Source: an uncultured Acidobacteriota bacterium (GTDB lineage Bacteria; Acidobacteriota; UBA6911). From it: a stretch of DNA of 64,000 nucleotides. The notes under the pieces are model-generated. The model did no database searches, was not told the DNA's origin, and saw only the letters and a program-made list of their open reading frames with translations. A program made the position numbers and the translations under genes. Below are positions 9,895-64,000 of this stretch, piece after piece. Positions within the stretch are counted from its first letter, which is position 1, and each line of letters starts with the position of its first letter. The stretch spans positions 32,001-96,000 of the forward strand of contig CAWHCF010000017.1 in NCBI GenBank assembly GCA_963827655.1. Reading direction: 5' to 3'.

Positions 9895-10069
9895 CGACTG
9901 GTCCCTTTTGGACTGCGGCGACTTGCCGCGCTTCACGGTCAGTCTACATGCGTCGATCGTCAATCGTCATTCGTCAGTGTTCTTGTGAGAGACCAGAATA
10001 CCTGATCACTTTTTTTACCGCAAAGAGAGGATAAAGTCTGTGCGTGTTGCGGAGTATCGGGGGTGATCC

Positions 10070-11260
10070 GTGGGATTCCATTCGATAGGGGAAGCGCTGG
10101 AAGATATTCGCGACGGCAAAATCATCATCGTCGTCGATGACGAGGACCGCGAGAACGAGGGGGATTTTACCCTGGCCGCCGAGAAAGTGACGCCGGAAGC
10201 CATCAACTTCATGGCCCATTACGGTCGCGGTCTGATCTGTCTGCCGCTGACGGCCGAGCGCCTGGACCAGTTGAATATTCCGCTGATGGTGGAGGGAAAT
10301 ACGAGTAAGTATGGAACTGCCTTCACAGTTTCGATCGAAGCTCGGCACGGTGTTACCACCGGCATTTCCGCCGCCGACCGCGCGACCACGATTCTAACGG
10401 CGATCAATCCGAGGAGCACGCCATCGGATCTGGTGCGGCCAGGACATGTGTTTCCGCTGCGCGCGCGGGCGGGCGGAGTCCTGGAACGAGCGGGCCAAAC
10501 GGAAGCTGCGGTCGATCTCGCGCGTCTTGCCGGTCTCTCGCCCGCCGGCGTCATCTGCGAAGTCATGAACCAGGATGGCACGATGGCCCGCATTCCGGAG
10601 CTGCGCAAAGTGGCCCGCCGCCACCGGCTGAAGATCATCACCGTGGCCGATCTGATTGCCTTCCGTTTGAAAAACGAAACCTTCGTTCACAGGATTACCG
10701 AAGCCGATGTTCCCACCGAATTCGGCGAATTTCGGGTGATCGTGTTTGAAAACTCGCTGGACCACCAGCATCATGTCGCGCTGGTTAAGGGGGTCATCGA
10801 TCCGAATGAGCCCACGCTGGTGCGCGTGCAATCGCAGTCGACCATGGCGGACGTATTTCATTCCCTGCTCAGCGAGAGCGGCGCGCAGTTGCGCGCGGCG
10901 CTGAGCATGATTGATGGGGCTGGAGCCGGGGTCGTGGTGTACTTGCGCCAGGAGGGCGGCGGAACGGGACTGGCTGAAGAAATATGCGGGTATGGGTTGC
11001 GCCGGCACAGGCCCGTGGCCGCAGAAGCCGGCGCATGGCTCGAGTCCAACCCGGACCTTCGGGTTTACGGCATCGGGGCGCAGATTCTAACGCAACTGGG
11101 CGTCCGAAAGCTGCGCCTGCTCACGAATCACCCCAAGAAGATTATCGGGCTTCAAGGCTATGGCTTGACGGTGATCGAGCAGGTTCCGCTGGTAACGAAC
11201 CGGTCGGAACTTTACCTGCGAAAGGATTTGAGTCCTGGGAAGCGCGAGACGCCAAGCTAG
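10070..11260 (+). CDS. ribB: DHBP synthase fused to a degenerate GTP cyclohydrolase II domain (RibBX-like)
   Basis: RibB motifs [28 protein letters not shown] and GQTEAAVDL are present. The C-terminal domain reads [20 protein letters not shown] and lacks the zinc cysteines. Confidence 0.92.
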
Positions 11261-11850
11261 ACCTTCGAGAGGAAGTGTCCCAGCTTCTCTTTCTTGATTT
11301 TTAGATAGTCCCGCGTCGAGGAGTTCGGAGTTATCTCCAGGGGAATGCGCTGCTGCACTTGTACGCCTTCTTTTTCGAGGGCCCGCACTTTTTCGGGGTT
11401 ATTGGAGAGAAGGCGAATGCTTCGAAACCCGAGATACTTCAGAATCTCGGCCGGCATGCGATATTCGCGTTGATCGGCCTTAAACCCCAGTTCCTGGTTG
11501 GCTGAAACTGTGTCCAGTCCCTGGTCCTGCAGTTCATAGGCGCGTATCTTGTTGATCAGACCGATTCCACGGCCTTCCTGCTGCTGGTAGACCAGGACTC
11601 CGAAACCGGCCTGTGAAATCAGTTGCATCGATGTATGAAGCTGATCTCTGCAATCACAACGGACGGAGGCGAACACATCTCCGGTGAGGCACTGCGAGTG
11701 AATTCGAACCATCGGAATCGAGCCCGCAGGCGGAGGGCCAGCCATCAGCGCCACGGCTTCTTCGCCTGAATCCAGGTCACGGAATCCATAGACCGTGAAG
11801 TCTCCGTAGGGTGTGGGGAGCGTGGCGCGAGGAACTTTGGCGAAATTCAT
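11257..11850 (-). CDS. ribA: GTP cyclohydrolase II
   Basis: [27 protein letters not shown] and LLSNNPEK motifs; zinc ligands intact. Confidence 0.96.
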
Positions 11851-16936: not shown

Positions 16937-19836
16937 TAATCCCTGTCCTTTTTCTTCCGTTTTTCCCTGCGTGATCTCGAAGATCGTAGTCGTGCCGCTG
17001 ATCTCGTTCCCCACGACGAGCAGCGGCCCCTTGATCGGACTGTCCTTCTCATCGATGAACAAGATCCCTTCAGGCCCGAGGTCGCCCGCCTGCGGGGTGC
17101 CGGGCGCGGAACCGAAGTCGCGCCGGTTTACGTAGGTGATGAAGACAGGTTCATGAGGATCGCTGATGTCGTACACCACCACACCGCCGATGCGCTCGAG
17201 CCCTATGAACGCGTAGGTGTTTCCTGCCACCGTCCCGATCGCGATTCCCTCCGGCTCCGGGCCTTTGTCATCACTGCGGTTGTCGAAATCGTTGCTGGTG
17301 TTAGAGGCGTTGAAGTTGGCCGGAGAGGTGATGGCGGTTATCCATTCCAGCTGGTCGCTGCTGTCGAATACCAGCTCGCCGGTCTCGCTCCAGATGGAAA
17401 ACGACCTGGTACCGAAGGCAAACAGTTGTTCAAAGGCGCCCGTCGCCGGATTCCTGCCCAGCGTGTTTGTGATATTCAGCCGGCCCAGGTTGGCATTGTT
17501 CTTGAGCACAGCACCGTCAGGAAATGCCGCCGGGTCCAGGTTAACGCTGCCGATGCGCACTGCTTCCTGGAAAGCGCTGTACTCGCGCGCATCCCCTTCG
17601 TTCGCGGTCACCAGGTAGGTATCGGAACGAGATTTATAAGAAGCAATTGCCGTCGGGCAAGAACAGGCCCTTTACCGGCCACTGTCGGATGTTGATCTTG
17701 TTATCCCGGTCGCTGGCATCGAGGCCGTTCAGACGGACATCGATGATGCCGAGCTGCTCCGGTTCGGGCACATAGTTCAAGGTGAACTTGCCGTCCGGAT
17801 GGATCGTGATATTGGCCACGCCGAAATCGTTGTCGTTGATCACCGCGAGCGTCCATGGATCAATAACCGCCAATCCTTCGACTTTCTGCGCGCGATTGTA
17901 GCCGGCTTTGTTGAGATCCACATGCAGGCTCTTCGCGATCGGCTGGATGCCGTTGGCCACCATTTCGGCGACGCTGAGCTGATCCACGGTCTTGCCCGTC
18001 GATCCCACGACGCCTGTGAGCGCCGTCACGTCCGTGGCGCCGGTGAGATTGAACCGGTAGATCTTCTTCTCTATGTGGGCCGGATTGTCATCCGGCAGCG
18101 CATCGTCATCGCGCTCCAGCGCCAGGAACTCGCCGTATCCGAGCGAGACGGCGTCACCGATCTTGTCCGCGCGGGTATTCGGTTCGGGGCCGAGATCCGG
18201 ATTGTCCAGCACGTAGATGAACTGCCGGGTGGCTCGCGTCGTGGGATTGAACTCGACCACTCGGATGTTACGCATCTGGTTGAGCGCACTGTTCGCGAGG
18301 GTCGGCGGATTGCGCAACGGGCTTTGCATGAAGGCATAGATTTTGCCGTCGTCATAGGCAACCCCCTCGAAGCCCCGGTTCTGGCGGCGTTGGCCGAGCA
18401 CCGCGGGAAGGACCTCGGTCCCGTACGTGCCGGCCGGCTTGACCGGCTGCGGCGGCTGTGCCCATCGGAACGAAGCGGTCAAGCAGCACTCCGGCGGCGC
18501 TGAAGTGGTAGATCGCCGGGCGATACTCGTCAACCATCCAGAATGTGCCGTTGCTTGGATCGATGACGATGCCTTCGAGGTCGGCGCCAAAGGGGTCGAG
18601 CGGGAGAAGGTTGCCGAGCAGGTTGACGGGCACCTCGTCGTTGTAGGGCGTATTACCTGAATCGCCCAGGGCCGTGTTGGACAATCCGGTGAGCGGGGCT
18701 CCAGACGCCCAGCTTCAGCGGAATGATCTGGGTCACGTCGATCCGGTTGCCGTCCAGCTCGAACCGCACCAGTTGTGGAGTGAAGTCCGGCAGAAGGAAA
18801 GGGCGTAATATGCCGGTCGGCTCGGCATTAGGACCACGGTCGGTGTGGGTGATGAACTTGAGCGCTCCGCTGACAGGATGAGTTCCCTCGAAGTGCAACC
18901 CGGAGAATCCGCCCAGGAAGAGCGTCTGGTTTCCCAGTGTTCTCCCGATCGGGGGGAGAGATGACGAACGGAAATTGTAGCGTCTTCGCGGTTGCCTCAA
19001 CCTTGCTATGGTCCTTGTGACCGAGTGCTGCGAGCTTTGTAACCACGGCTCTCTTGATGTCGATGATGGCAATAGCATTGTTCTCCTGGAGTGTCACATA
19101 GGCTGTCTTCGAATCGTGACTGACGGCAATGTACTCCGGTTCCATGTCCTGCGAGACTCTGGCGCCCGGCCCGAAGATGCGGATTCCAGGGGGAAGCGGG
19201 CCGGTATTGAACGCCCGAAAATCCACGGTGCGCACATCGTCCTGCTTCAGCTTCGCGACGTCACCTTTCATCTGGATGATGCTCACCGAGCCTTCGGGAT
19301 CGATGGTATAGGTGTCGTTGGGTTCCCCTTCGTTGGCGATCAGCAGCCAATCCCCATCCGGTGAGAAGGTCAACATGTCCGGGAGCGCCCCGACCTGCTA
19401 GAACGTTGAGGACTCTCAGGTCCTTGGCGCTGAAAAACACGACCTTGCCGGGATCGGTCTTGATGGCGTTTTCAACCGCCACAGCGACGACACCTTTGTC
19501 CACGGCCACGCTGTTGGCAACGGCCCCGTAGGGCCTGACGTCGATCTGGGCCACGCGGGTGACAGCGGCTGGATTCGCTATAGTCAGCACGTCGACCGTG
19601 GCCGACAGGGCATTCACGACGAAGAGCCGCTGGGTCTTGGGGTCGTGCGCTACGATCTCGGCGCCCCCCGCATTGAAAATGCCGCTCGCATAGGAACCGA
19701 TCGGCTTCAGCTTGATTGATTCGCGGTCGTCCTGGTCGTCTGCCGGAGCAAGTGTCGCGGTCAAGGCGAGGGAAACAGCCAGCAGGGGACCCAACAAGGT
19801 CGAAAGCCTGGTTCCACGTGTCAAAGTTTGTTTCAT
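16936..19836 (-). CDS. Secreted choice-of-anchor I (alkaline phosphatase-associated) protein with an embedded phytase-like domain, interrupted by six +1 indels
   Basis: Collinear fragments: signal peptide, AEIVAHD, GALPDMLTF, ANEGEP, EPEYI, TLQENNA; then GGFSGL, TDRGPN, DLEG, DEYRP, NRGFEG, KVEG, NDNDF; then ANEGD, RSDDKGPEPE, DLGPEG, NEISG. Single-base removals near 19398, 18980, 18708, 18439, 17650 and 16960 join them into one ORF. Confidence 0.8.
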
Positions 19837-52563: not shown

Positions 52564-53012
52564 GGCGTTCCTCCCTAGTGTGTGCTTCTCCCGACTCTAC
52601 GTCAGGCCGCGCGAACAATGCAATCCGAAATACCGAGGCGAGTGCGGCAGGCGAGACGGCGGACCATTTTCTGTTGGCCGCGCAGTCTGGTCACCCTGCA
52701 GGATCGCGCCTTTCCGGCTGCGGCCTGCAGGCCCGCCGGCGTTGTGACTCGCCCTCTCGTACCGCTCCAGGTCGGCATCGTCGCAGCACCGCGCCAGAGA
52801 TCCCAGTGCGAGAGCGGTAGAATGCGGACTTATTCCTGCGCAGTCGCCCGACCTTCCTGACGTTCAAATCCCTTGAAATTCGGCACCCCGGTCCGTAGTA
52901 TTCAGGCTCCGGGCGGTACGCGTGGGACTTGGACCAATGCTTTCGAGAAGCCTCAGGCAACCATGCGGAGAACCAGCAACCCGTCACCTCCGCTAATGCT
53001 GCTTTCGCATCC

Positions 53013-53089
53013 GTCCCCATCGTCTAGTCGGCCTAGGACACCGCGCTTTCAATGCGGCAACACGGGTTCGAATCCCGTTGGGGACGCCA
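53013..53089 (+). tRNA. tRNA-Glu(TTC)
   Basis: GTCCCCA/TGGGGAC acceptor stem, CCGCG-CTTTCAA-TGCGG anticodon arm, GGTTCGAATCC T-arm, CCA end. Confidence 0.96.
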
Positions 53090-54556
53090 GTTCTCGAATT
53101 TGTCTTTCCGCGCCAGGATGTCGAAGGGCTTATGGTATGTGGGACAAAGACTTCCGCGCGCGAAGGCGCAGTTCGATAGCAGGGTATTAAGCAGTCTTCG
53201 TCTTTCGGGGTGGTCCTGCCGTAAGTACAACTGGTGGGCTTTCTTGGCCAGTTCTAGAATACTGATGCCAAGCTCGTAATTCTTCTTAGTGGCATTTTCG
53301 TAGCGGGCCATCGAGAGCCTGATTTCCCTGAGTTCGCTCTGCCATTGTCTGGACTTCCTGGTCCAGAATTCCTCATCGATCTTTCCCGCTAGCTTATCGT
53401 CGTAGGCCCGATCCAATCGCTCCTGAACTGCTGCGTACTGAGTGTGGAGCTTCTCGATGGCCTCCCTATGGAATTTCTCTATGTCCCGGTGACTTTCCTG
53501 GAGGGCAACGCCAATCTTCGCCGCTAGATCGTCGGGGATCTCGATGGCTCGAACGATCTCACCAAGAAGATTCGACAGTCTGTCTTCGCGTATGTACGTG
53601 TTACCGCACTGCCCCTTGAATCCTGTGCAGTGGTAATAGACATAGCGGCTCTTCTTCTCTTCGGCGGTCATCGAGCAGCCGCAAAGCCCGCAGGTCAAAA
53701 GCCCAGAGAATGCGAAACTCCGCTTCGTTGCGCGAGGGCGACTTGAGCTCTTGAACACTTCCTGAACCGTGTCGAAAAGCTCCCTGGAAATAATGGGCGT
53801 GTGCTTGCCAGCGTGGATTCTACCTTTCCAGACAAACTCGCCGCAGTAAATCGGGTTATGCAAGATTCTGTGGATCTCAGATTTCGCCAGCCGTTTACCG
53901 GATCTGTGATGGAGAAGCCCAGAATTGCCGGCGATTTGCACTATTTGTTTGAGCGAATAGCTGCCGCTTGCGTAGGCCTCAAACATCTTGGCGATCAGTG
54001 GTGCTTTCTTGGGATCAACCTCAATCACTCTGGTCTCCCGGTTGTTGACGTATCCTATCGGGGCGTAGCTGGGCCAATGTCCCTGCTCGGCCTTCTCACG
54101 CATTCCCTTGCTCGTCTCTTCCGACAGGTTGTCCAGAAAGTTTTTCGCAATCAACACCTTCAGCCCGTGCATGAGCTTCTCTGAGGAGCGCGACGTGGGA
54201 GAAATGATTGAGTTCTCTTTAACGAGCCTGACCTCGAGTCCAAGCTCATCAATGATCACATAGTCTTTGAAGTTTCGGTAAAGTCTGTCGGTCTTTTCCA
54301 CAAGGATGATCCGACAGCCTGGATTCCGCCTTAGGAATGAAACCATTTTGCCGAAGGCAGTCCGACCTGACTGTTTGGCGGTCTCAACATCCACGAATTC
54401 CTCTAGAACGTTCAGGCTGTGATCGTCTGCATAAGCGAGCAGGAGCTTGAGCTGCGCAGGGATAGAGAAGCCCTCTTTCTCCTGCTCTTTGGAGGAGACC
54501 CGCGCATAAAGGACCGCCTTCATGCGCCCCTTATCGGAATGTTCGTTCTTTGGCAT
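53033..54556 (-). CDS. Large serine recombinase (resolvase, recombinase and zinc-ribbon domains)
   Basis: YARVSS, DRLYRN, APIGY, HTPIIS, CGLCG...YYHC and a coiled coil; the C-terminus reads antisense through tRNA-Glu. Confidence 0.94.
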   Translation of the reverse strand: MPKNEHSDKGRMKAVLYARVSSKEQEKEGFSIPAQLKLLLAYADDHSLNVLEEFVDVETAKQSGRTAFGKMVSFLRRNPGCRIILVEKTDRLYRNFKDYVIIDELGLEVRLVKENSIISPTSRSSEKLMHGLKVLIAKNFLDNLSEETSKGMREKAEQGHWPSYAPIGYVNNRETRVIEVDPKKAPLIAKMFEAYASGSYSLKQIVQIAGNSGLLHHRSGKRLAKSEIHRILHNPIYCGEFVWKGRIHAGKHTPIISRELFDTVQEVFKSSSRPRATKRSFAFSGLLTCGLCGCSMTAEEKKSRYVYYHCTGFKGQCGNTYIREDRLSNLLGEIVRAIEIPDDLAAKIGVALQESHRDIEKFHREAIEKLHTQYAAVQERLDRAYDDKLAGKIDEEFWTRKSRQWQSELREIRLSMARYENATKKNYELGISILELAKKAHQLYLRQDHPERRRLLNTLLSNCAFARGSLCPTYHKPFDILARKDKFENWRPQRDSNPCCRIESAVS

Positions 54557-54574
54557 GTTGGTCCTAAAGGGACT

Positions 54575-54817
54575 TCAAGGTTTGCGGCTAGAGCTTTGAG
54601 AGTAATCTATCATCAACGTTGGGGCATCGCGCAAGATTTTTTGGGGATCTGGAGTCGTCGGCAGTGGCGGAGTTTTCCTTTCTCTCTCATGCCATTCATA
54701 GAGCACTCGAAAGAACCCAATCAAATTGGGAGTGATGGTGAGCTCTGGTCCAGCTTCGGGGAGATCCGTCTGCCAGTTCGCAACTGATTTCTTCTGATCT
54801 GATTGGCTGACTTTCAC
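54575..54817 (-). CDS. Small hypothetical protein upstream of the recombinase
   Basis: 80 aa containing NLIGFFRVLYEW; co-oriented and 18 bp from the recombinase ORF. Confidence 0.55.
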   Translation of the reverse strand: MKVSQSDQKKSVANWQTDLPEAGPELTITPNLIGFFRVLYEWHERERKTPPLPTTPDPQKILRDAPTLMIDYSQSSSRKP

Positions 54818-54893: not shown

Positions 54894-55187
54894 TCATACG
54901 GCGGCACAGATCCCCTTCAACTCGATCTCAAAGCCGAACGGGGAGAGATCGTGGTCATGGACCATATGAGCGTGCATTCGAAAGGAGCGTAGACGGTTTC
55001 GAATCTCCGGCCGCTCCCGGATTCGCTCCTTCAGCAGGTCCAGATTGATGGCGCACTCGTCAATCAGAACTAACTGAAGTAAGTCGTTATCGCGAGGAAA
55101 TGGTTTCCAGATCCACGCCGCCGTCCACACTGCGGATGCCACGCAGTAGCTGACGAAAGACTTACCCTCGATGACGCGCCGTAACAC
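54894..55187 (-). pseudogene. Possible truncated coupling-protein (VirD4-like) N-terminus
   Basis: MLRRVIEGKSFVSYCVASAVWTAAWIWKPFPRDNDLLQLVLI resembles, from recall, the transmembrane start of acidobacterial coupling proteins; no ATPase domain follows. Confidence 0.4.
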
Positions 55188-55200
55188 CTTTGTCTTTTTC

Positions 55201-55467
55201 TCACTCGATCGTGGACTCGGAACTCACGGCTCCTTCGGTCTGGTGGTGCGGTGCTCTCTTGCCTGTGGTCCTGTTGCGCTTGAGCCAGGCCTGAAATTCC
55301 TTGTCTCGACCGAAGGTATAGCGAAGCGCCTGCTCGACTACATAGTGCTGGCCGCTATCTATAAACTCACAGTAACTCCGAAGCAGATCGCCCACGGCAG
55401 GATCGATCCGTATGTTGAGCTGGTCCTTCTTCTCAACCGGAGGTTCCTTTGTAATCAGAGCCACCAC
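55201..55467 (-). CDS. Small ribbon-helix-helix-like DNA-binding protein
   Basis: GAGGAG RBS before GTG; DQLNIRIDPAVGDLLRSYCEF...YVVEQALRYTF beta-alpha-alpha pattern. Confidence 0.6.
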   Translation of the reverse strand: MVALITKEPPVEKKDQLNIRIDPAVGDLLRSYCEFIDSGQHYVVEQALRYTFGRDKEFQAWLKRNRTTGKRAPHHQTEGAVSSESTIE

Positions 55468-55503
55468 TTTCTCCTCGACTTGCTGGTGCCTGTAATCGCA
55501 TTT

Positions 55504-55583
55504 TGCTAGCAGCGATTGCCTCATCTCTGCTAGCAAGCTTTCGCGAAACCGTGCTAGCAAGGAATCCCGTAAGTCTGCTAGCA
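55504..55583. repeat. Four TGCTAGCA palindromes with exact 24-bp period
   Basis: Copies start at 55504, 55528, 55552 and 55576; the 16-bp spacers are non-identical. Confidence 0.9.
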
Positions 55584-55598
55584 AGATTCTCTCGTCTT

Positions 55599-55720
55599 GG
55601 GTCAAGGGACGGGCGGGAGCGACCCCCGGGAGTTCGAAGCAAAGCTTCAGAACGATCCGAGGGGTTTTGGGCGGCCCAGCCGCACAAAAACCGGGGTCGC
55701 TCCCGCCCGTCCCTTGACCC
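55599..55720. repeat. Perfect 28-bp inverted repeat enclosing two hairpins
   Basis: GGGTCAAGGGACGGGCGGGAGCGACCCC (55599-55626) and its reverse complement (55693-55720). Confidence 0.88.
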
Positions 55721-55842
55721 CGCGGCCCGCCCAGATCGGACTTGACGGCTTGTGAAGTCATTGTGAGAGCTTTGATTAGTATCGGGCGGGCACAGAACCA
55801 CGAGCCAGAACATTGACCTGAACATCCAATGCGTTGGATGGT

Positions 55843-56770
55843 TCAGGCTTCTTCCGCCCAATCTGAGGTATTTCTGGCAGACGTACCAAAAAGGTCATAG
55901 TTTTCATCGAGCTTGTAGGTCAGAAAGTCCGCTGTGAGGGCACCAGAGCGATCGCTTCTTGGGAACAAAACAGCGATCACATGCACACCAGGGAGGTCGT
56001 CTTTCCTTTCGTCCGAAGGATTGAAAAAGCCGCGACACGAAAGGTTTTCTCGGCGGTAGGAAGTGCCTTTGTTCGTCGCGACGTGCACGATTCGGACTCC
56101 GCCGAGCGCGTCAAAAGGTTTGGTACTGCTTCAAAAAGTCTGAAATCCTGAAGTGGAAACGACACCCTCAGCGACGCAGCAAAAGGAGACCACAGGAGCT
56201 GAGAGCGACAATAAGTTCGGCCGGAATGAAGATCGGAACCTTGTCGAGAAATGAGATCGCGGATTGGACGCCGCTTGAGCGATAGATCTTGGTGGGATTA
56301 TCGATTCCGATGCCGCGCTCGCCCGTGAAATAGGCGATTTTTTCCTCCTCTTCTTGGTCCAGAAAGCGCTTCCGATTCGCGAGAACGAAGTCAGTGCCAT
56401 CAGTTTGGCCTTCGCAACAAGCGCCGGTCGCGTGCGTCTGGGCGGTTGTTCGCTTGACCAATGGCACCGTAGAAGGACTGGGAGCATTGGTGGTAAACAA
56501 GGCTTTGCGTCGCCACCTGTACATTGGCCGTGGTCCTGGCCAGGATTTTCTCCACAAGTACGTCGTCACGTCAGCCGGTTTCTTACCGCGGAACTGGCAA
56601 TACTGGCGCAGGACGAAGTAGCCGCTATGAGCCGTCGCCAGACAGAGAAACACAGCTTCTCGGTCTGTGTGTAGCCCAGGGACTGGAGTGCTGCGATGCG
56701 TTCCTGGTGTGTCACGATAGCGAGAGGATTCCCGGCGGTTTAATGCGGCATAAAAGTCAGGCAGACGCAC
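55843..56770 (-). pseudogene. Fragmented plasmid/ICE replication- or relaxation-type protein
   Basis: Collinear pieces in different frames: REAVFLCLATAHSGYFVLRQY / KAKLMAL / DFVLANRKRFL...EKIAYF...KIYR...FLDKVPIF / EGVVSTSGFQTF. Family assignment is from recall only. Confidence 0.5.
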
Positions 56771-57010
56771 CCTGCGAAATAAGACGAGCGGCGCCTTGAT
56801 CGCGACTCTGCAGCTTTATATTAGTAACGAAAAATGGGTAAATGTAACACGAGGGGTCAAAAAAACCCGAGACTGTAGTGCGGGCATCCTTGAGTCTTGA
56901 CGTTTCTCGCGGGAGTTCGACGAAATGAAACACACTCAGAATAAATATTCCGAGCACGCTGATGGCCGAGGTTTTAGGACGGACGAAATCTGTCGCCTTG
57001 CTCTCAAATC

Positions 57011-57349
57011 CTATCGGGTCGATCGAGTAGTTGTTTTCAGCTCTTTCGTGTTTGTCGTGCGGAAAGCTGATCGAATTGGATAGTGCGACGGATCGTCGAA
57101 ACGAAAAACCAGAGACGAATCGGAACGTTGGTAATGACAGCTGTACATAAGGCGTATGGGTCTTGGTTCTGCGTCCACGAGTTCGCGGAAGTGAAGGTGT
57201 GAGTTGTCGAGGAAGTAAATGTTTCCTCGGATTAGTCCTGCATCGGGGCTGCGCTTGTCGAGTGCTTCGTTGTACGAGCTGACGTAGGAAGATTCGCCGA
57301 GGGCTTCCAGCAAGCGTGAAATATAGTCTTCAATGGACAATCTGGGCCC
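57011..57349 (-). CDS. DUF6516/TumE-like toxin, possibly degenerate
   Basis: LHFRE...MYSCHYQRSDSSLVFRFDDPSHYP; start uncertain. Confidence 0.65.
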   Translation of the reverse strand, partial: GPRLSIEDYISRLLEALGESSYVSSYNEALDKRSPDAGLIRGNIYFLDNSHLHFRELVDAEPRPIRLMYSCHYQRSDSSLVFRFDDPSHYPIRSAFRTTNTKELKTTTRSTR

Positions 57350-57474
57350 CATGAAGAGTTTCGTACTTTTTCCTGAGTACGGGTGTTCCTGGCGAATTCC
57401 GAATTTGCCGTCATTTCCATCCACGTGTCCAGGGCGAATTGTCGCAATCCTTCGATTTTCTGATCTTCAACGCG

Positions 57475-57777
57475 GCATACGATTGCGGAACGGATCAGTC
57501 GGCCGGGGGCGCATGAGGAGAGCACACAAGCCGGCGACGACGCGATCGCAGACGCGCAGATTGGGTGAACGGTGTCGGGAACGATTCAGGATCAGGAGTT
57601 GCTGCTTGACCAGAACAGATTCGGCGACCACAGAACGTGCGCCGCCGGGACCCGCGAGTCGGGCAATCGTCGTAATGAGATGGATGAAAGTACAGCTAGA
57701 TCACGCATGAGAGAGCATCGTAACAGATCGCGAAATCCAAGAAATGCCCTAAAACTAGCAATTCGCCACCGACAAGA
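57475..57777 (-). pseudogene. N-terminal remnant and end of an integrase-core IS/transposase
   Basis: MRDLAVL/IHLITTIARLAGPGGARSVVAESVLVKQQLLILNRSRHRSPNL...VAGLCALLMRP/GRLIRSAIV, with frameshifts, then truncated. Confidence 0.65.
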
Positions 57778-58019
57778 TCCGCAGCGCGGCTCTTCAGGTA
57801 CGTCACCGGTCGAATATCTTTCCTTAGATGCCCATGCATGGATCCTCGGCCCGAATTCGGTACCGAATTCGGACCGATTGCAAGCTTTCTGCCGTCCGCG
57901 AGAATTCGGTTGTTTCAGTCAGGCCGCTGCAAAGGTACTGCGGGCCCCGGCAGGACAACGCTCCAGGGTGCGACCGCGTTCCCCGGGCCGACAGCCTGGC
58001 CGCCCGGCGGCACGTTCAT

Positions 58020-59153
58020 CTACGGGCATACGGTGGTGCCGCGGCTCAGGACAGTCTTATCGCATTTTATTGTCCCGATGGCTACCCCATCAAAAGTCAC
58101 CCGGGTCCCAAAGCCGAGGTCCACATCGGTGCCATTGCGTGTGATGGCAGACGGGTTCGCTGGTATCGACACAAATGTCAGACTGTCGGCGGCATCCGCC
58201 AGCACTCCGGTGTCGCTATTGTTTCGCACGGTGAGCCCGCCAACGACGAGAGCCCCGGACCCCTGACCGAAGTTCAAGCCTATGGCGTTGTTCTCGATCA
58301 GGAACGTGCTGTTTCCAACAGGACTGACGAGTGTGCCGTCGACAACAAAGATCCCCGTCGGATTATTTGAGGCGCTGATTGTGCTGCGGGCGAACACCGT
58401 AAAGATTGAGCTGGCGATGACAATGCCGCCAGCACCGTTGTGGTGTGCGGTTATGCTGCTTCCCTGCGATGTCCCGAACCCGAAGATGGCCACCTGGCCG
58501 CTACCGGCAATCAAGCCGAATGCACCGTTGTTGCTTAATTGAACCGCCGCCCCGCGGATTTCCAGAGTCGACTGACCGTTGACCTCTATGCCGTTCCCCA
58601 CATTGTTAGTAATGTCGATCGCGTTCTTGAGGACGGCGCTGGAGCCTGTGAACACGTCCAGGCCGAAACCGTTGCGCCGCATTGTGCAACCGATAAGCTC
58701 GGCCGAGGAGCTGTCACCGACTGCAATACCTGTGGCGGCATTATCCTGCACGACGGTGTTGTGCACCGCAAAGGCCGCGCCGCGCATACCGAGAATCCCT
58801 TCTCCGGGACCGCGTTGTATGGTGAAGCCCTTAATAACCACGCCGCTAGCTCCATCTATGGTCACCACCCCGTCGAACTCGGTCGGCGCACCGCCACCTC
58901 CGTCGAGGATCGCGGCGCGTTGCCCGTCAAGCGTGATCCGGTCTGTAGTGATGGTCACTCTCTCACGGCAGGTGCCGCTGACGATGATCGTGTCGCCCGC
59001 TTCGGCTTTGCTCAGAGCCTCGGCGATCGTTTTCCCCGCGCCGCAATCTACAACTTTCATACCGGGGGCAGCGACGGCCTCTGCAGAGGAGGCTGCCGCG
59101 ACCAGCGCGATCATCAGCGCAAAAAGCTTCGTTCGTGCGTCTTGAGTTTTCAT
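58020..59153 (-). CDS. Secreted right-handed parallel beta-helix protein
   Basis: Signal peptide, GDTIIVSGTC and repeated xxNN/GIxV beta-helix turns. Confidence 0.82.
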   Translation of the reverse strand: MKTQDARTKLFALMIALVAAASSAEAVAAPGMKVVDCGAGKTIAEALSKAEAGDTIIVSGTCRERVTITTDRITLDGQRAAILDGGGGAPTEFDGVVTIDGASGVVIKGFTIQRGPGEGILGMRGAAFAVHNTVVQDNAATGIAVGDSSSAELIGCTMRRNGFGLDVFTGSSAVLKNAIDITNNVGNGIEVNGQSTLEIRGAAVQLSNNGAFGLIAGSGQVAIFGFGTSQGSSITAHHNGAGGIVIASSIFTVFARSTISASNNPTGIFVVDGTLVSPVGNSTFLIENNAIGLNFGQGSGALVVGGLTVRNNSDTGVLADAADSLTFVSIPANPSAITRNGTDVDLGFGTRVTFDGVAIGTIKCDKTVLSRGTTVCP

Positions 59154-59407
59154 GACTCTCTCCTTGGTCGGTTATCAATCATTTGCTGCAGCGGGGTAAT
59201 CACTCCTTCATTATTTGGCATGTTTGTATTCTCCTTTTGTTCTTTAACGGCACCTGAATGGGGCCAGAATGTTTCAACCATTTCTTCTCTCAAGCTCGCG
59301 CCGAATGTTGCAATCGACGCCTTCACTTTCATTAACGGAAATGGCGGCGAAAGAGGATCATGCAAATCAAGGATTCGATTACCAAATGCAACCAAGCGGC
59401 GCGCAAG

Positions 59408-59416
59408 TGGTATAAT
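59408..59416 (+). promoter_or_regulatory. Extended -10 promoter upstream of the ECF sigma gene
   Basis: TGGTATAAT (TGnTATAAT), 47 bp before the ATG. Confidence 0.6.
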
Positions 59417-59463
59417 GCTCGGCGTCTCAGCCTGAACTCATTGCACGAAAGGGGTGATCGCCC

Positions 59464-60030
59464 ATGACACCCTCGCCCCAAGAGATCTCGCAATTGCTCG
59501 TCGAGTGGAGTAACGGCGATCAGGCCGCGCACGACAAGCTGATGCCACTGGTCTACGACGAACTGCGCCGGATAGCGAAGCGTTACATGAGACGTCAACA
59601 TCCTAGCCACACGCTGCAAACCACCGCGCTCATCCATGAAGCGTACCTCCGGCTGGTGAATCAACGAGAGGCACACTGGCAGAACCGCACCCACTTCTTC
59701 GCCGTCGCGGCGCGTGTGATGCGCCAGATCTTGGTCGATCACGCCCGCTCTCGTCACAGCGCCAAGCGTGGGGCTGAGACACGCGCAATCGTTCCGGAGG
59801 AAGCTGCCGTCATTGCTCCGGAACGGGCCGCAGAGATGATCGCCCTCGACGAGGCGCTGCAGACGCTGACGGCCATCGACCGGCGTCAAGGCCGGATCGT
59901 GGAATTGCGGTACTTCGGCGGGCTGACCGTGGAAGAGACCGCCGAGATCCTCAAAATCTCGCCGATCACAGTCAAACGCGACTGGAGTCTGGCCAAAGCT
60001 TGGCTCCATCAAGAGCTCAAACTCAAATAG
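59464..60030 (+). CDS. Kinase-associated ECF sigma factor (TIGR02999-like)
   Basis: [45 protein letters not shown] and [10 protein letters not shown] motifs. Confidence 0.93.
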
Positions 60031-60095
60031 TCCCTTGTTGCTGATCCTTGTTCCTTTATCGGTTGCCACGGGCCATGGCCTGTGATCAAGAATCA

Positions 60096-62922
60096 ATGAC
60101 GCCCGAACGTTGGCAGCAAATCGGCCGGCTCTATGACGCTGTCTTAGAGCACCCGCCAGAGGAGCGCCCTGCCTTTCTCGCTCAAGCTTGTGCTGGCGAC
60201 GAAGACCTGCGCCGAGAGGTCGAAATGCTCATTGCCTCCTCCGAGCAAGCGGGCCGCTTCCTGGAGTCATCACCGGGGGATATGGCGGCTGACTGGCTTG
60301 CCGAAAGCCAGGCTCGAGCCATGGTCGGGCGGAGCCTGGGCCCTTACCGGCTCATTTCCTTGCTCGGCGTGGGCGGAATGGGTCAAGTCTACCGCGCCCT
60401 GGATACGCGATTGGACCGCGAGGTGGCGGTCAAAGTCTTGGCCACACACCTGGCCCAGGATGCTGGGGCGGTGGCGCGCTTCAAAACCGAGGCCCGAGCT
60501 GTCGCGGCGCTCTCGCATCCCAACATTCTGGCGATTCACGATTTCGGGACGGAGCAGGGCGTCACCTTCGCAGTCATGGAATTGCTCGCCGGGGAGACGC
60601 TACGCAGTTGCCTGGCGCGCTCGGCTCTGGGCTGGCGCAAGGCAGTCGAATATGGGATGACGCTTGCTGACGGGCTGGCGGCGGCGCATACCAGAGGGAT
60701 CATTCACCGCGACCTCAAGCCAGAGAACATCTTCCTGACCGAGGACGGTCAGGTGAAGATTCTCGACTTCGGCTTGGCGCGAATAAAACGAGTAGTCTCC
60801 GCCCAAACGGCGGTCTCGACCTCGGTGATGCCTGTTGTCACTCAACCGGGCGTAGTGTTGGGGACGGTCGGCTATATGTCGCCGGAGCAGGTACGCGGGG
60901 AGGAGGCTGAGGCGCCCAGTGATATTTTCTCCTTCGGGTGTGTGCTTTACGAGATGGTGACGGGCGGTCGCGCCTTTGCGCGCGCGACGGCGGCGGAGAC
61001 TATGGCAGCGATTCTGAAAGACGATCCGCCCCGTCTGGCAGAGGCCGGGCAAAGCATTCCCCCCGCTTTAGAGCAATCGATCGGGCGCTGTTTGGAGAAG
61101 CAGGCCGAGAAGCGCTATCAATCAGGGAGCGAACTGGCTCTTAATTTAAGGGCCACCGTAGGCGGGATCGGAGGAGCGAAGGGCTTGCCGTCGCGCTTTG
61201 TGGTCGGCTTTCGTCGAGCGGCGTGGGTTAGCGCCCTGTTGCTCGCGGCCTTAGTGGCGGCTCTGTGGTGGCAGCCCTGGCAGAAGCCGCAGCAGCCGGT
61301 CCAGCAACTCATTTCCACTTTCCCGGGGGCGCACACCGCTGCCAGTTTTTCACCGGATGGCAGCATGATCGCATTAATGATGCAGGATGGGGCGGGAGTG
61401 CCTCAGATCTGGATCAAGAACCTGGCCCAGGGTGATCCGATCCAGGTCACTTTCGATCCGGGTGGCGCTGGCCCGCCACGCTGGTCTCCCAAGAATGACC
61501 AGATCATTTTCAGCCGTGGCCGGGGCTGGCAATCCATATTGTCGGTCCCACCTCTCGGTGGCCGACTCCGGATTCTCATCGATAGAGGTCATAATCGAGA
61601 TGGCACACGCCATCCCGAAGGCGGCAGGAACCCGAGTTTTTCCTGGGACGGATCCCGGATTGTCTTTGAGAGAGCTGGTGAACTATGGATCGCCAATGCC
61701 GACGGAAGTAATCAGCACAAGGTCGAAGGCCTAGTCCCAGGTAATGACCGAAGCGGTTCACTGGGGCCTACGTTTTCACCCGATGGTTCTCTCATCGCCT
61801 ATTTTCATTCCACACTCGGTCCAGTGGGTGAAATCTGGGTGATCTCCTCTCAGGGTGGAAAACCGCGCCAATTGACTTTCGACAATGACCTTTGCGCAAC
61901 GCCCGTCTGGACAGCGGATGGACGTCACATCATCTTTTCTTCCAGTCGGCGCGGCAGCCAGACTCTCTGGAAGGTGCCCGTGGGTGGCGGCGAGCCGCAG
62001 CCGGTGTTGGTGAGCGCGGGTGAAGACACGAATCCGGAAGTTTCCCGCGATGGCACAAGATTGATCTATACCACGGCGCGCAATCATTACGCCTTGACTG
62101 TTCTAGACCCAGCAACCCAGCAGAAGCGGGAACTGAGGGAAGTCCGGGCCGACATGGCGGGGCCCGTCTTTTCTCCCGCGGGCGATAAGATTGCATTCTG
62201 CAGCAGTACAGTGAGTTGGCGATTCGCATTTGTTTACGATCGATGCGGATGGCCGCAACCTGACCCAGGTGACCCATGGCAAGGGGGAACGAAACATTTT
62301 CCCCCGCTGGTCTCGTGATGGGTCAGCCCTGTATTTCTATCAGGACCGTCCGGTTCCGTCTTTTCGAAAAATTTCGCTCCGAGGCGGGCAGAGTGTGGAG
62401 CTGGTTCGCGGTTGGAGTTTTTCGTCCCAATGGCTGGTGCATGTCGATCCTCAAGAGAAGCTCATTGCCCACTCCCAGATCGAGAACGGCATTGTCATCG
62501 GAACCTTTCTTCGGGAAATTGCTACGGGAAAGGAAACCCTGTTCCGCAAGCTCATGTATGAGCCTCAGTGGTCGAAAGACGGCCAATGGATTCTGGGCAC
62601 TGAATTGAACTCTGGCGTCCGCAGCTCGTTCGGTGACATCGTGGTTTGCGCCGTGTCCACGGGTGAGTGCCGCAAAATAGCAGCCGATGGTAACCGTCCC
62701 ATCTGGTCTCACGATGGTTCCCGGGTCTATTTCCACCGCTTCAAAGGAGGGAATCGAGATCTCTTCTCAGTAGCTAACGATGGGACCGATGAACGTCTGG
62801 TTGCCGAGCTCGGACCCTTCCCACCCTATAACCATCTCACGGACGTTTCCCGGAAGGGAGAGGTAGCCTACGTGCAATTTAAGGCAGGGAAACCAGAGCT
62901 GTGGATGATGGATTTGAGGTGA
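60096..62922 (+). CDS. Membrane Ser/Thr protein kinase with TolB-like (PD40) propeller; +1 frameshift near 62216
   Basis: MTPERW start, GVGGMG, VAVK, HRDLKPEN, DFG and YMSPE; one transmembrane segment; repeated FSPDG/WSRDG units continuing into 62230-62922. Confidence 0.92.
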
Positions 62923-63124
62923 GGAACCACCATGACCCGTACCGGCTTCCCGCTTGCGTCTCAAACGCTCCGGCGATTGAAAACCCTATCATCTTCAACC
63001 CGCCGACGCGACGGCGAACTTCGTCCGTCCGAGCGAGCTCAGAAAGCCTGACGGCCGGATCCACGAACGGCGTCGCTGGGGCGGCCAGCCGCATACCGTC
63101 GACAACTGGTTTGTTTCAGTTCCT

Positions 63125-63141
63125 GTTTACGTATAGTAAAC
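63125..63141. promoter_or_regulatory. Putative HigA operator palindrome
   Basis: GTTTAC-gtata-GTAAAC, 7 bp upstream of the higB GTG. Confidence 0.55.
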
Positions 63142-63148
63142 TTTCGCC

Positions 63149-63433
63149 GTGCGGGTAATCTCGCGGCGGCGCATCAATGAATTTTGCGAGCAGCATGCGG
63201 ATGCGCTCCCTGGTCTTCACAACTGGTACAAGACCGTCCGTCGTGCCACTTGGAGGAACTTCGCAGAACTTCGTCAGGACTTCAATTCAGCGGATGTGGT
63301 TGGACGGCGGACGGTGTTCAACATTCATAAGAATGTTTATCGCCTGATCGCTCGGGTGAATTATCAGAAGCAGATCGTTTTTGTGTTGTTCATCCTCACA
63401 CACAATGAATATAAAAAAGGGAAATGGAAATGA
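63149..63433 (+). CDS. higB: Type II toxin HigB
   Basis: MRVISRR, W...SADVVG, VFNI...YRLI and LTHNEY motifs. Confidence 0.92.
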   Translation: MRVISRRRINEFCEQHADALPGLHNWYKTVRRATWRNFAELRQDFNSADVVGRRTVFNIHKNVYRLIARVNYQKQIVFVLFILTHNEYKKGKWK

Positions 63434-63837
63434 GGGCGCCAGCACGGATCAATAGAGAACGATATGGACGGCTTCTCCTCGAGAAACTGCCGCGGCCAAT
63501 TCGGAACGATCGTGACCTGGAGCGTGCCGAAACAGAGCTCCTTGCGCTCGACGAGAAGGGGAATGATCTGACTCCCGAGGAAGGCGAGTACTTCGACATG
63601 CTCGCGGTCTTGATCGAGGATTACGAGAACAAGCACTACCCTGTCCCAACTGTTCCCGCAAGTAAGGCATTGAAGGAGCTGATGTTCGAACGTGGACTTC
63701 GGCACAAGGACATCGCGGCAATCGTTGGCAACAAAGGGCTGACAACGGAGATTCTGGCTGGCAGGCGTGGCATCAGCAAGACCGTTGCGCGAAAGCTCGC
63801 CGAGCGCCTGCAGGTCCCGATAGACCTATTTCTCTGA
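63424..63837 (+). CDS. higA: Antitoxin HigA (HTH)
   Basis: LIEDYE, LKELM...GLRHKD...EILAGRRGIS; overlaps higB. Confidence 0.9.
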   Translation: MEMRAPARINRERYGRLLLEKLPRPIRNDRDLERAETELLALDEKGNDLTPEEGEYFDMLAVLIEDYENKHYPVPTVPASKALKELMFERGLRHKDIAAIVGNKGLTTEILAGRRGISKTVARKLAERLQVPIDLFL

Positions 63838-63884
63838 GGATCAGGAAGAGCTTCGCCCCTGGTGTCTTCGCCGTCGCAGACTGC

Positions 63885-63998
63885 CTAGGCGTAGGGCTTC
63901 ACCCCGGCCACAGGTTTACGATAGACATTGGGACGGCCATCGTACTCGAAGAACTCAACTTCCAACGCTCTGGCCACATCCCACCCATCAATGGCAAG
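63885..63998 (-). CDS. Possible 3' end of an unidentified gene running off the window
   Basis: Open frame LAIDGWDVARALEVEFFEYDGRPNVYRKPVAGVKPYA*. Confidence 0.35.
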   Translation of the reverse strand, partial: LAIDGWDVARALEVEFFEYDGRPNVYRKPVAGVKPYA

Positions 63999-64000
63999 GA

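Follow-up and report, generated by a model that had tools for sequence, protein, structure and literature searches.

A serine recombinase whose reading frame ends inside a tRNA-Glu gene represents a widespread integrase family at tRNA 3' tips with a predicted small partner

Our study examined a 64 000-nt stretch of DNA from an uncultured Acidobacteriota bacterium (positions 32001-96000 of contig CAWHCF010000017.1, hereafter C17, in an assembly of 8.18 Mb and 53 contigs), referred to below as the window, and revealed a large serine recombinase (LSR) whose open reading frame (ORF) ends on the antisense strand of an intact tRNA-Glu(UUC) gene. It belongs to a family of serine integrases that target the tips of tRNA genes, span their own attachment site and have a new predicted partner, and we regard this as a real feature. 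With a probability of about 0.8, the attachment site of the element (attP) lies in the 3' end of the recombinase gene and the crossover is located among the final 9 nt of the tRNA gene, such that the tRNA is regenerated and the native C-terminal helix of the enzyme is replaced by a tRNA-encoded peptide. This reading is carried by the overlap between recombinase and tRNA, by a second copy of the 9-nt core with an alternative tail at the far end of the element, and by the recurrence of both in the family. The features on which it is built are given below, with positions past the end of the window expressed as window-equivalent positions (C17 position minus 32000).

53013-53089, plus strand: intact tRNA-Glu(UUC) gene, anticodon ttc (ARAGORN; Rfam RF00005)
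53033-54556, minus strand: LSR of 507 aa, integrated form (ORF, Pfam, PDB sequence matches, Foldseek)
53033-53080, minus strand: 15 codons, QRDSNPCCRIESAVS, and a stop from the antisense strand of the host tRNA, left of the core (ORF and tRNA calls)
53081-53089, no strand: left copy of the 9-nt common core GGGACGCCA (identity between the island ends starts exactly here)
54575-54817, minus strand: small partner ORF of 80 aa, containing NLIGFFRVLYEW (ORF, conserved upstream of the LSR)
64659-64700 (window-equivalent), minus strand: right end of the element (P arm), with the alternative tail IVDEFRNWAIQVA and a stop (sequence, alignment)
64701-64921 (window-equivalent), minus strand: decayed 3' remnant of a related recombinase (sequence, alignment)

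The tRNA-Glu gene scored 60.6 bits with the Rfam tRNA model (cut-off 29 bits) and was the only tRNA-Glu(ttc) gene among the 46 tRNAs found in the source assembly; being single-copy, it must stay preserved. It forms the left junction of the element (attL, composed of the host B arm and the regenerated 3' end). The LSR ends in FENWRPQRDSNPCCRIESAVS and a stop, and its ORF reaches 57 nt into the tRNA gene, with the final 18 codons (53036-53089) and the stop (53033-53035) lying inside it. The codon of W490, TGG, is the complement of the CCA encoded by the tRNA gene, and the core GGGACGCCA corresponds to the 3' strand of the acceptor stem, the discriminator base and CCA. An initial annotation, made from the letters of the window, had described this overlap and a preceding 80-aa ORF; ORF calling, ARAGORN and Rfam confirmed the former and the latter was found at 54575-54817. 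The chance of 15 extra open codons was estimated at ~0.5, so the overlap is not improbable alone, and it exceeds chance because it recurs across the loci of the family.

The 507-aa ORF has the make-up of an LSR, with a catalytic domain, a first DNA-binding domain (DBD1), a zinc-ribbon second DNA-binding domain (DBD2) and, from prediction, the coiled coil and fold. Pfam assigned Resolvase (PF00239, E 2.4e-21, residues 14-161), Recombinase (PF07508, E 3.9e-17) and Zn_ribbon_recom (PF13408, E 8.1e-12). Across 42 homologues, R19, S21, S22 and Q25 of the segment YARVSSKEQ were at least 90 % conserved and the cysteines C289, C292, C294, C310 and C317 were invariant. Sequence matches in the PDB comprised the A118, TP901-1 and SPbeta integrases, together with the catalytic domains of TP901-1 and 3guv, and the C-terminal domain of A118 integrase was matched at E 1.2e-10. 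An AlphaFold2 model with a mean predicted local distance difference test (pLDDT) score of 82.7 showed helices 342-389 and 395-446 as a predicted coiled coil inserted in DBD2, and the best Foldseek match of this model was the full-length SPbeta integrase (E 6.4e-22, 544 columns), with Bxb1 and PhiC31 also returned.

The far end of the element was located via the recombinase remnant. A tblastn search of the LSR against its own genome found two fragments past the window end, 88 % (residues 457-496) and 80 % (residues 385-424) identical, and a second copy of GGGACGCCA, the other attachment site suspected beyond 64 kb, lies there at window-equivalent 64701-64709, the direct repeat beginning precisely with these 9 nt. 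Left of this second copy, the DNA does not resemble a tRNA, is open in the integrase frame and encodes WRP-IVDEFRNWAIQVA followed by a stop. A repeat search within the window found none that marks an island end, since that end lies past base 64000, and a BLAST search of the 77-nt tRNA-Glu against the genome gave only chance matches of ≤27 nt, a 9-nt repeat being too short for BLAST. With both ends located, the island spans ~11.6 kb (window 53081 to window-equivalent ~64709), and it is in all probability an integrative genomic island with its left end at tRNA-Glu, carrying toxin-antitoxin and signalling genes. It bears the Islander-type signature of an intact tRNA at one end, a displaced tRNA fragment at the other and an integrase gene between them, although the 9-nt fragment is shorter than the repeats typical for tyrosine integrases. 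GC content was 0.65-0.67 to the left of tRNA-Glu and 0.52-0.56 to its right, and 0.52-0.62 across the island cargo. The LSR was the sole recombinase detected between the island ends. A tyrosine integrase was considered as the true agent and rejected, as no PF00589 match lies on contig C17 and all 20 matches in the genome are on other contigs.

Under the proposed mechanism, the LSR would insert the island where the single-copy tRNA-Glu(UUC) gene has its 3' tip, with attP placed inside the recombinase ORF, 16 codons ahead of the native stop. The element would bring its own last 9 nt of the tRNA (GGGACGCCA, W-R-P on the other strand), and recombination within them would therefore restore an intact tRNA; the crossover itself would fall within this core. 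Integration would sever the native tail IVDEFRNWAIQVA, leaving it at the far end of the island, and the LSR frame would then continue through the antisense strand of the tRNA (QRDSNPCCRIESAVS and a stop). Judged by sequence, the integrase frame runs across the probable crossover point, and the excised form would have a C-terminus unlike that of the integrated form.

The alternative tail at the far end of the island is conserved. Family members free of a tRNA (L052, L085, P0005, P0010, P0110 and P0116) share the tail motif [DE]FR[NT][WYF] with the tail at the far junction, as the following C-termini illustrate.

Far junction of the window island: WRP-IVDEFRNWAIQVA, stop
L052: WLA-ALDDFRNYLIREAA, stop
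L085: WLP-LYDEFRTFLNN...
P0110: ...GW-LYEFRNFLQ...
P0116: ...RA-FVYEFRIYLKLAG, stop (contains ...YEFRIYL)
P0005 and P0010: WLG-VRNVFRN, stop, and WLG-VRDAFRN, stop

The motif is kept between members that are only ~45-55 % identical overall, and together with the second GGGACGCCA it bears out the placing of the attachment site in the 3' end of the recombinase gene. P0009, an integrated cousin of P0005 and P0010, has WLG-DRDSNP... instead. L053, a clean island of ~7.4 kb, has the 9 nt TGGCTCGCC at both ends; at the recombinase end TGGCTCGCC is followed by tRNA-antisense sequence, and at the end ~7.4 kb upstream the frame reads WLA-ALDDFRNWLIRDAA and a stop. The far core of L053 is preceded by DNA like the region downstream of tRNA-Asn in L052. 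The shared core was 9 nt from the CCA end in three independent cases, namely the window, L053, and P0005 and P0010 compared with P0009. When the far ends of 54 relatives' loci were searched for the last 6-12 nt of the tRNA combined with the tail motif, only two spurious matches resulted, the flanks of ≤10 kb probably being too short; a far-end search with the motif only recovered L052 and L053. A word search with the tail region of L052 gave 10 matches, and the five C-termini inspected (P0111 among them) were all without the native tail. In the protein collection, forms with the native tail are rare. L052 itself is a chromosome-sized contig (CAVQFC010000001.1) whose attP-like junctions form an array. 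Three features lie at 2305-2569, 9995-11476 and 19171-19245, namely a complete recombinase that has the native tail, another native-tail 3' remnant 9 kb upstream of it (91 % identity over 267 nt), and an apparently unoccupied tRNA-Asn 7.7 kb downstream.

Recurrence was assessed in several collections. Within the phylum, 38 of 401 genomes sampled had a relative at E ≤1e-30 and 29 loci were fetched, of which 16 contained a tRNA and 14 had the recombinase stop inside an antisense tRNA (Glu, Asn, selenocysteine, Pro, Gln, Cys, His, Ala or Lys); the 15 loci without an overlap include L021, from a genome flagged as unpublished. More than 6000 database proteins matched the LSR at E ≤1e-20, and among the 120 closest a tail signature antisense to the T arm (e.g. 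W..RDSNP) was present in 94, most of the others stopping a few codons past W or RG. At least 586 relatives were confirmed among species-representative genomes of many phyla (Acidobacteriota, Proteobacteria, Planctomycetota and others), with Caulobacter, Rhodopseudomonas, Asticcacaulis, Sphingomonas, Bradyrhizobium and Sandaracinobacter among the cultured hosts. From these a multi-phylum set of 80 loci was kept, and in 54 of them the ORF enters an antisense tRNA (Asn 25, Gln 19; Asp, His, Ser and Glu 2 each; Arg and Met 1 each), by 12 to 258 nt. On viral contigs, 53 relatives were found with 25-61 % identity over the best matched segment; 10 of these had an overlap with a tRNA or transfer-messenger RNA (tmRNA) according to ARAGORN, and L153 also overlaps a tRNA-Gln that ARAGORN missed. 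Two IMG/VR relatives, L150 and L152 (~38-42 % identity), extend 62 nt into an antisense tmRNA gene, which indicates that the family uses tmRNA too. Across the family, insertion keeps to the 3' tip, whereas the identity of the tRNA is not conserved (Asn, Gln, Glu, His, Ala, Pro, Lys and others, as well as tmRNA).

These results bear on the suggestion of the initial annotation that this is a possible new integrase with a conserved target. Homologues proved to be tRNA-adjacent in both locus sets, and the position at the 3' tip is indeed conserved; however, the identity of the tRNA varies, and the system is not wholly new in view of serine recombinase islands described from Dehalococcoides in the relevant part of PMC3146451.

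A small ORF of 80 aa ends 18 nt ahead of the recombinase ATG. Its core, W-Q-P..R.LT.EDAREI..N..GFF..L.EW, was found by tblastn and motif scan 24-870 nt upstream on the recombinase strand in at least 19 of the 80 multi-phylum loci (73 of which have at least 400 nt of upstream DNA), with weaker matches elsewhere in further loci and matches in 2 of the 29 same-phylum loci. F35 and W42 were invariant in 18 sequences, and no consistent Pfam or PHROG match was obtained for the family. From this sequence evidence the small ORF represents a family without annotation that is linked to these LSRs. A complex prediction of the small protein with LSR residues 165-507 scored 0.76, compared with 0.00 for the best of three controls, a mark that 116 of 157 solved complexes attained, as did 2 of 215 mismatched pairs (approximate counts, as our own alignments were used); the runs agreed on at least 51 % of contacts and the pLDDT of the partner was at least 50. 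The predicted interface joins residues 26-46 of the small protein to LSR residues 338-355, 429-459 and 475-478; in the model these segments form the beginning and the returning part of the coiled coil, plus the helix that follows. A hotspot for the binding of recombination directionality factors (RDFs) has been placed at the junction of DBD2 and coiled coil in diverse serine integrases, in the portions of PMC11722253 and PMC11795197 that concern it, and the predicted site coincides with this hotspot. The score may partly reflect likeness to solved integrase-RDF complexes, since such complexes exist. The conservation of the ORF with the LSRs and a predicted binding site where known directionality factors bind speak for its suggested role as the partner, and we consider the odds evenly balanced that the small protein binds the LSR where the coiled coil meets DBD2 and serves as a directionality factor.

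Several observations weigh against the reading proposed here. No overlap with a tRNA was seen in 26 of 80 and 15 of 29 loci, several of which lie at contig ends or hold broken genes, and in three viral-contig relatives (L141, L142 and L190) the gene is followed only by a tRNA 3' fragment of 45-50 nt. The core is not flanked by significant dyad symmetry: 13 of 26 positions match, and the best value from shuffled sequences was 11.75 ± 1.2 (maximum 15). AlphaFold2 predicted a helix at residues 477-492 of the native tail of L052 (pLDDT 82-88) and no secondary structure for residues 487-507 of the window LSR (pLDDT <50), but the two predictions used different alignments, with the native tail in 7 rows only. 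The small ORF of the window is without 6 residues of the EDAREI segment of its family, and the fold of the small protein is predicted with only moderate confidence (pLDDT 50). Beyond the right junction lies an integrase remnant and not naive host DNA. Finally, neither an excised circle nor an empty site was seen in the Logan contigs of four public runs, which are too short to tell, and an exact 20-nt junction pattern searched in metagenome contigs gave one chance match, in unrelated DNA without recombinase or tRNA.

The remnant at the right junction means that this is not a textbook attR, and the island could have been put in place by homologous recombination with the remnant, the recombinase having no part in it. 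The remnant (64701-64921) is identical to 53081-53184 plus 53284-53400 at 211 of 221 nt, with the first 85 nt free of mismatches, and has an in-frame deletion of 99 nt. In its distal block, six of seven differences are T-to-C on the plus strand, raising GC, and most alter the amino acid; these substitutions fit an older, decaying copy in a GC-rich host. The tRNA-Glu gene was 95-100 % identical in the 18 relatives from the host family that were searched. In 10 of 11 relatives' loci examined, the DNA downstream of tRNA-Glu was unrelated among genomes and held no integrase-like sequence; the recombinase therefore cannot rely on any conserved right half-site past the last bases of the tRNA. The eleventh locus (L135, on G403:C73, from another genus of the host family) has a short recombinase 3' remnant (...PFEIL-like) directly after tRNA-Glu, indicating that this type of element has visited tRNA-Glu before and that old remnants persist there. 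We infer that the island entered by accretion, with the tRNA on one side and an older remnant of a related element on the other, by either a recombinase using the occupied site or homologous recombination. In another relative, G411 (L132), 44 nt of the tRNA-Glu 3' end recur exactly at a distance of 4.2 kb from the complete gene (C54:57051-57094 and 61259-61336), and this is the signature of a different, long-repeat type of island at the same tRNA.

The second of these routes, in which RecA-type recombination of a circular element with the older remnant of ~220 nt placed the island here, is in our judgement unlikely. The 95 % identity of the ends over 221 nt, with its mismatch-free first 85 nt, would offer the necessary homology, and G403 shows that such remnants persist beside tRNA-Glu. 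Canonical serine integrases, such as those of PhiC31 and Bxb1, are not known to recombine attP with attL, which also favours this route. However, the position at the tRNA tip throughout the family and the clean 9-nt case of L053 show that the recombinase normally carries out the insertion, and since naive sites are unrelated after the tRNA, the enzyme must tolerate any right half-site, an old remnant included. Moreover, homologous recombination would alter the history of one insertion and not the nature of the element.

A more serious competitor, whose chances we put a little short of even, is that the exchange of tails is a neutral by-product. Here attP merely overlaps the last codons and both forms of the enzyme behave alike; the native tail would matter just for folding or for binding DNA, and direction would be set by the small ORF by itself or by nothing at all. 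The integrated tails are dictated by the tRNA and stop anywhere from 12 to 258 nt into it, with no selection on their sequence, and some relatives may hold one tRNA-derived tail in both states. The last 28 residues are disordered in solved SPbeta integrase complexes, as far as the pertinent section of PMC11722253 describes them. Yet the motif of the native tail is conserved among members only about half identical, the tail is predicted as a confident helix, and it begins ~12 residues past LSR residues 475-478, which touch the partner in the predicted complex. The extreme C-terminus of SprA, the SPbeta integrase, has also been linked to directionality (Abe et al., as cited in PMC11722253). In some subclades the element may carry a long piece of the tRNA and keep the same tail in both states, and tail exchange may not be universal. 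About 25 viral-contig relatives with the gene interior to the contig have longer non-tRNA tails of another type (...NGG...LE...LK.LD.AA and a stop).

That tail exchange alters the behaviour of the enzyme between the excised and integrated states is accordingly a tentative suggestion, which we hold to be doubtful, and its most specific version, a built-in directionality switch of the LSR, is quite improbable. In such a toggle, the native helix ([DE]FR[NT][WYF]L) of the excised form, beside the junction of coiled coil and DBD2, would keep the enzyme in integration mode and might occupy or shield the groove bound by the small GFF..L.EW protein. After integration, the disordered tRNA-encoded peptide would free the groove, and hence only the integrated form would respond to the small protein and excise. 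As the right half of the target beyond the tRNA would not be read, occupied sites would stay usable and islands would stack at the tRNA.

It is also rather unlikely that the island is a dead fossil, with the ORF still open but the element immobile and the overlap recording an old insertion. No excision product was found in Logan contigs or by the junction-pattern scan, the conserved core of the small ORF has an indel, and three toxin-antitoxin-like modules in the cargo would stabilize a resident island. Of the Logan contigs from the four runs, compared with a 14-kb stretch, none joins the island ends and none joins the tRNA to the right flank; X1 (75 nt) and X2 (851 nt) cross the right junction and end before attP and remnant become distinguishable, and several halt or diverge at window 53083-53084. 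Against immobility, the 507-aa ORF is intact and retains residues, R19 and S21 among them, that are (nearly) invariant in 42 homologues, the sequences of the two junctions are undamaged, and the GC content of the island is still well under that of the host. Related copies also vary in nature: in a contig from a soil metagenome (run X3), 744 nt (window 63908 to window-equivalent 64653; L138 11908-12653), holding a 124-aa ORF and the MazF-like gene, are swapped for 32 other letters before the contig enters the right end of the island, and thus a natural variant without the MazF-like cassette exists.

The integrative element proposed here has partial precedents. In Dehalococcoides, tandem islands lie at ssrA, the tmRNA gene, with the serine recombinase DsiB at attL (McMurdie et al. 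2011, PMC3146451), and in a related fosmid the repeat is embedded in the dsiB gene (PMC3146451). As described in the corresponding passages of that paper, those islands resemble ours in having the ~540-aa DsiB gene directly at attL on the reverse strand, in targeting the 3' end of a tRNA-like gene (tmRNA, which L150 and L152 overlap here), in stacking in tandem beside the target and in being non-conjugative. They differ in that the Dehalococcoides repeat is 20 bp with insertion in the T-loop, whereas the core here is 9 nt at the acceptor end, and in having a second, small serine recombinase, DsiA, with DsiB being CcrB-like. Here no second recombinase accompanies the LSR, the partner is a protein of 80 aa without a known family, and the targets are many true tRNAs across many phyla. 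An altered tail of the enzyme is not among the points raised in those passages.

An attP inside the integrase ORF and a tRNA-gene target are also known for Mx8 IntP/IntX and the SSV-type integrases (PMC4383910). Integration of Mx8 changes the integrase's C-terminal region, according to the title of Tojo et al. 1996, and the SSV gene is split, both as given in PMC4383910. These enzymes are, however, tyrosine recombinases with a chemistry unrelated to that of the LSR and with long segments of identity, in contrast to the 9-nt core. In the integration-dependent immunity of mycobacteriophages, a gene across attP likewise gives state-dependent C-termini, but there the spanning gene is a repressor, the integrase is a tyrosine integrase, and the loss of a degradation tag was shown experimentally and is used as a switch (PMC8092301, in the part on this mechanism); here the spanning gene is the integrase itself and the change of tail is known from sequence. 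Tycheposons of Prochlorococcus are small cargo-carrying elements with full and partial tRNA genes, a minority of which (937 minus 910 elements) have a large serine recombinase, as summarized in 10.1101/2020.12.28.424599.

The characterized integrases A118/LI, SPbeta SprA (with the RDF SprB), Bxb1 and PhiC31 share with the LSR the domain set, the fold and a coiled coil in the zinc domain (here predicted), and a small accessory protein at the junction of coiled coil and DBD2 (predicted here). Identity to them was low, at 13-18 % in Foldseek alignments. A118/LI, SPbeta, Bxb1 and PhiC31 integrate in protein-coding or intergenic sites, usually disrupting them, whereas the LSR lies at tRNA tips. In these four systems attP lies beside the integrase gene and is not known to fall within it. 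In the literature consulted, we found no account of this family, of the tail exchange, or of serine integrases that insert at the 3' tips of tRNAs and have attP within the integrase gene, beyond the partial precedents above, and the word 'tRNA' was not found in the main text available of the recombinase survey of Durrant et al., supplements apart (PMC10083194).

Serine integrases are favoured tools for inserting large DNA. A reference on tRNA-linked islands states, in the section concerned, that serine integrases are not known to target tRNA genes (PMC4383910); contrary to this, a very large family appears to insert at the last bases of many tRNAs. It targets universal, short and conserved sites, of which the right half seems unimportant, and this makes the family attractive for broad-host genome engineering and also helps to explain the pile-up of islands at tRNAs. 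The difference in tail between the free and integrated forms, with a predicted partner at a directionality hotspot, offers a testable model of direction control.

The cargo of the island comprises several ORFs without a family and the following features, and Pfam detected no phage-structural or conjugation domains among the island ORFs scanned.

54894-64000, no strand: island cargo within the window (Pfam, GC)
57011-57424, minus strand: ORF of 137 aa with a TumE-like toxin domain, E 1.6e-07 (Pfam)
58020-59153, minus strand: beta-helix protein (Pfam)
59464-60030, plus strand: extracytoplasmic function (ECF) sigma factor (Pfam)
60048-62318, plus strand: Ser/Thr kinase with PD40 repeats (Pfam)
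62230-62922, plus strand: further PD40 repeats (Pfam)
63149-63433, plus strand: HigB (Pfam)
63424-63837, plus strand: helix-turn-helix protein (Pfam)
63928-64000, no strand: last stretch within the window, from which the island continues past base 64000 on C17 (tblastn, alignment)
64232-64636 (window-equivalent; C17 96232-96636), plus strand: MazF/PemK-like toxin, just past the window end (Pfam)

Within the cargo, an ORF of 186 aa and no known family (55201-55761, minus strand) contains, at 55504-55588 and 55599-55720, three direct repeats spaced by 24 nt (TGCTAGCAAG...) and a perfect 28-nt inverted repeat with a 66-nt spacer. The right flank of the island is a sulfatase gene (C17 97072-99482, window-equivalent 65072-67482), which is divided into two overlapping minus-strand ORFs of 507 and 469 aa, each with a partial Sulfatase domain, and this split may indicate a frameshift or a pseudogene. 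Upstream of tRNA-Glu, an intergenic stretch of ~150 nt (52691-52841) without an Rfam match at the gathering threshold is a dispersed repeat, with copies 72-88 % identical on at least seven other contigs of the genome and several more in the relative G406.

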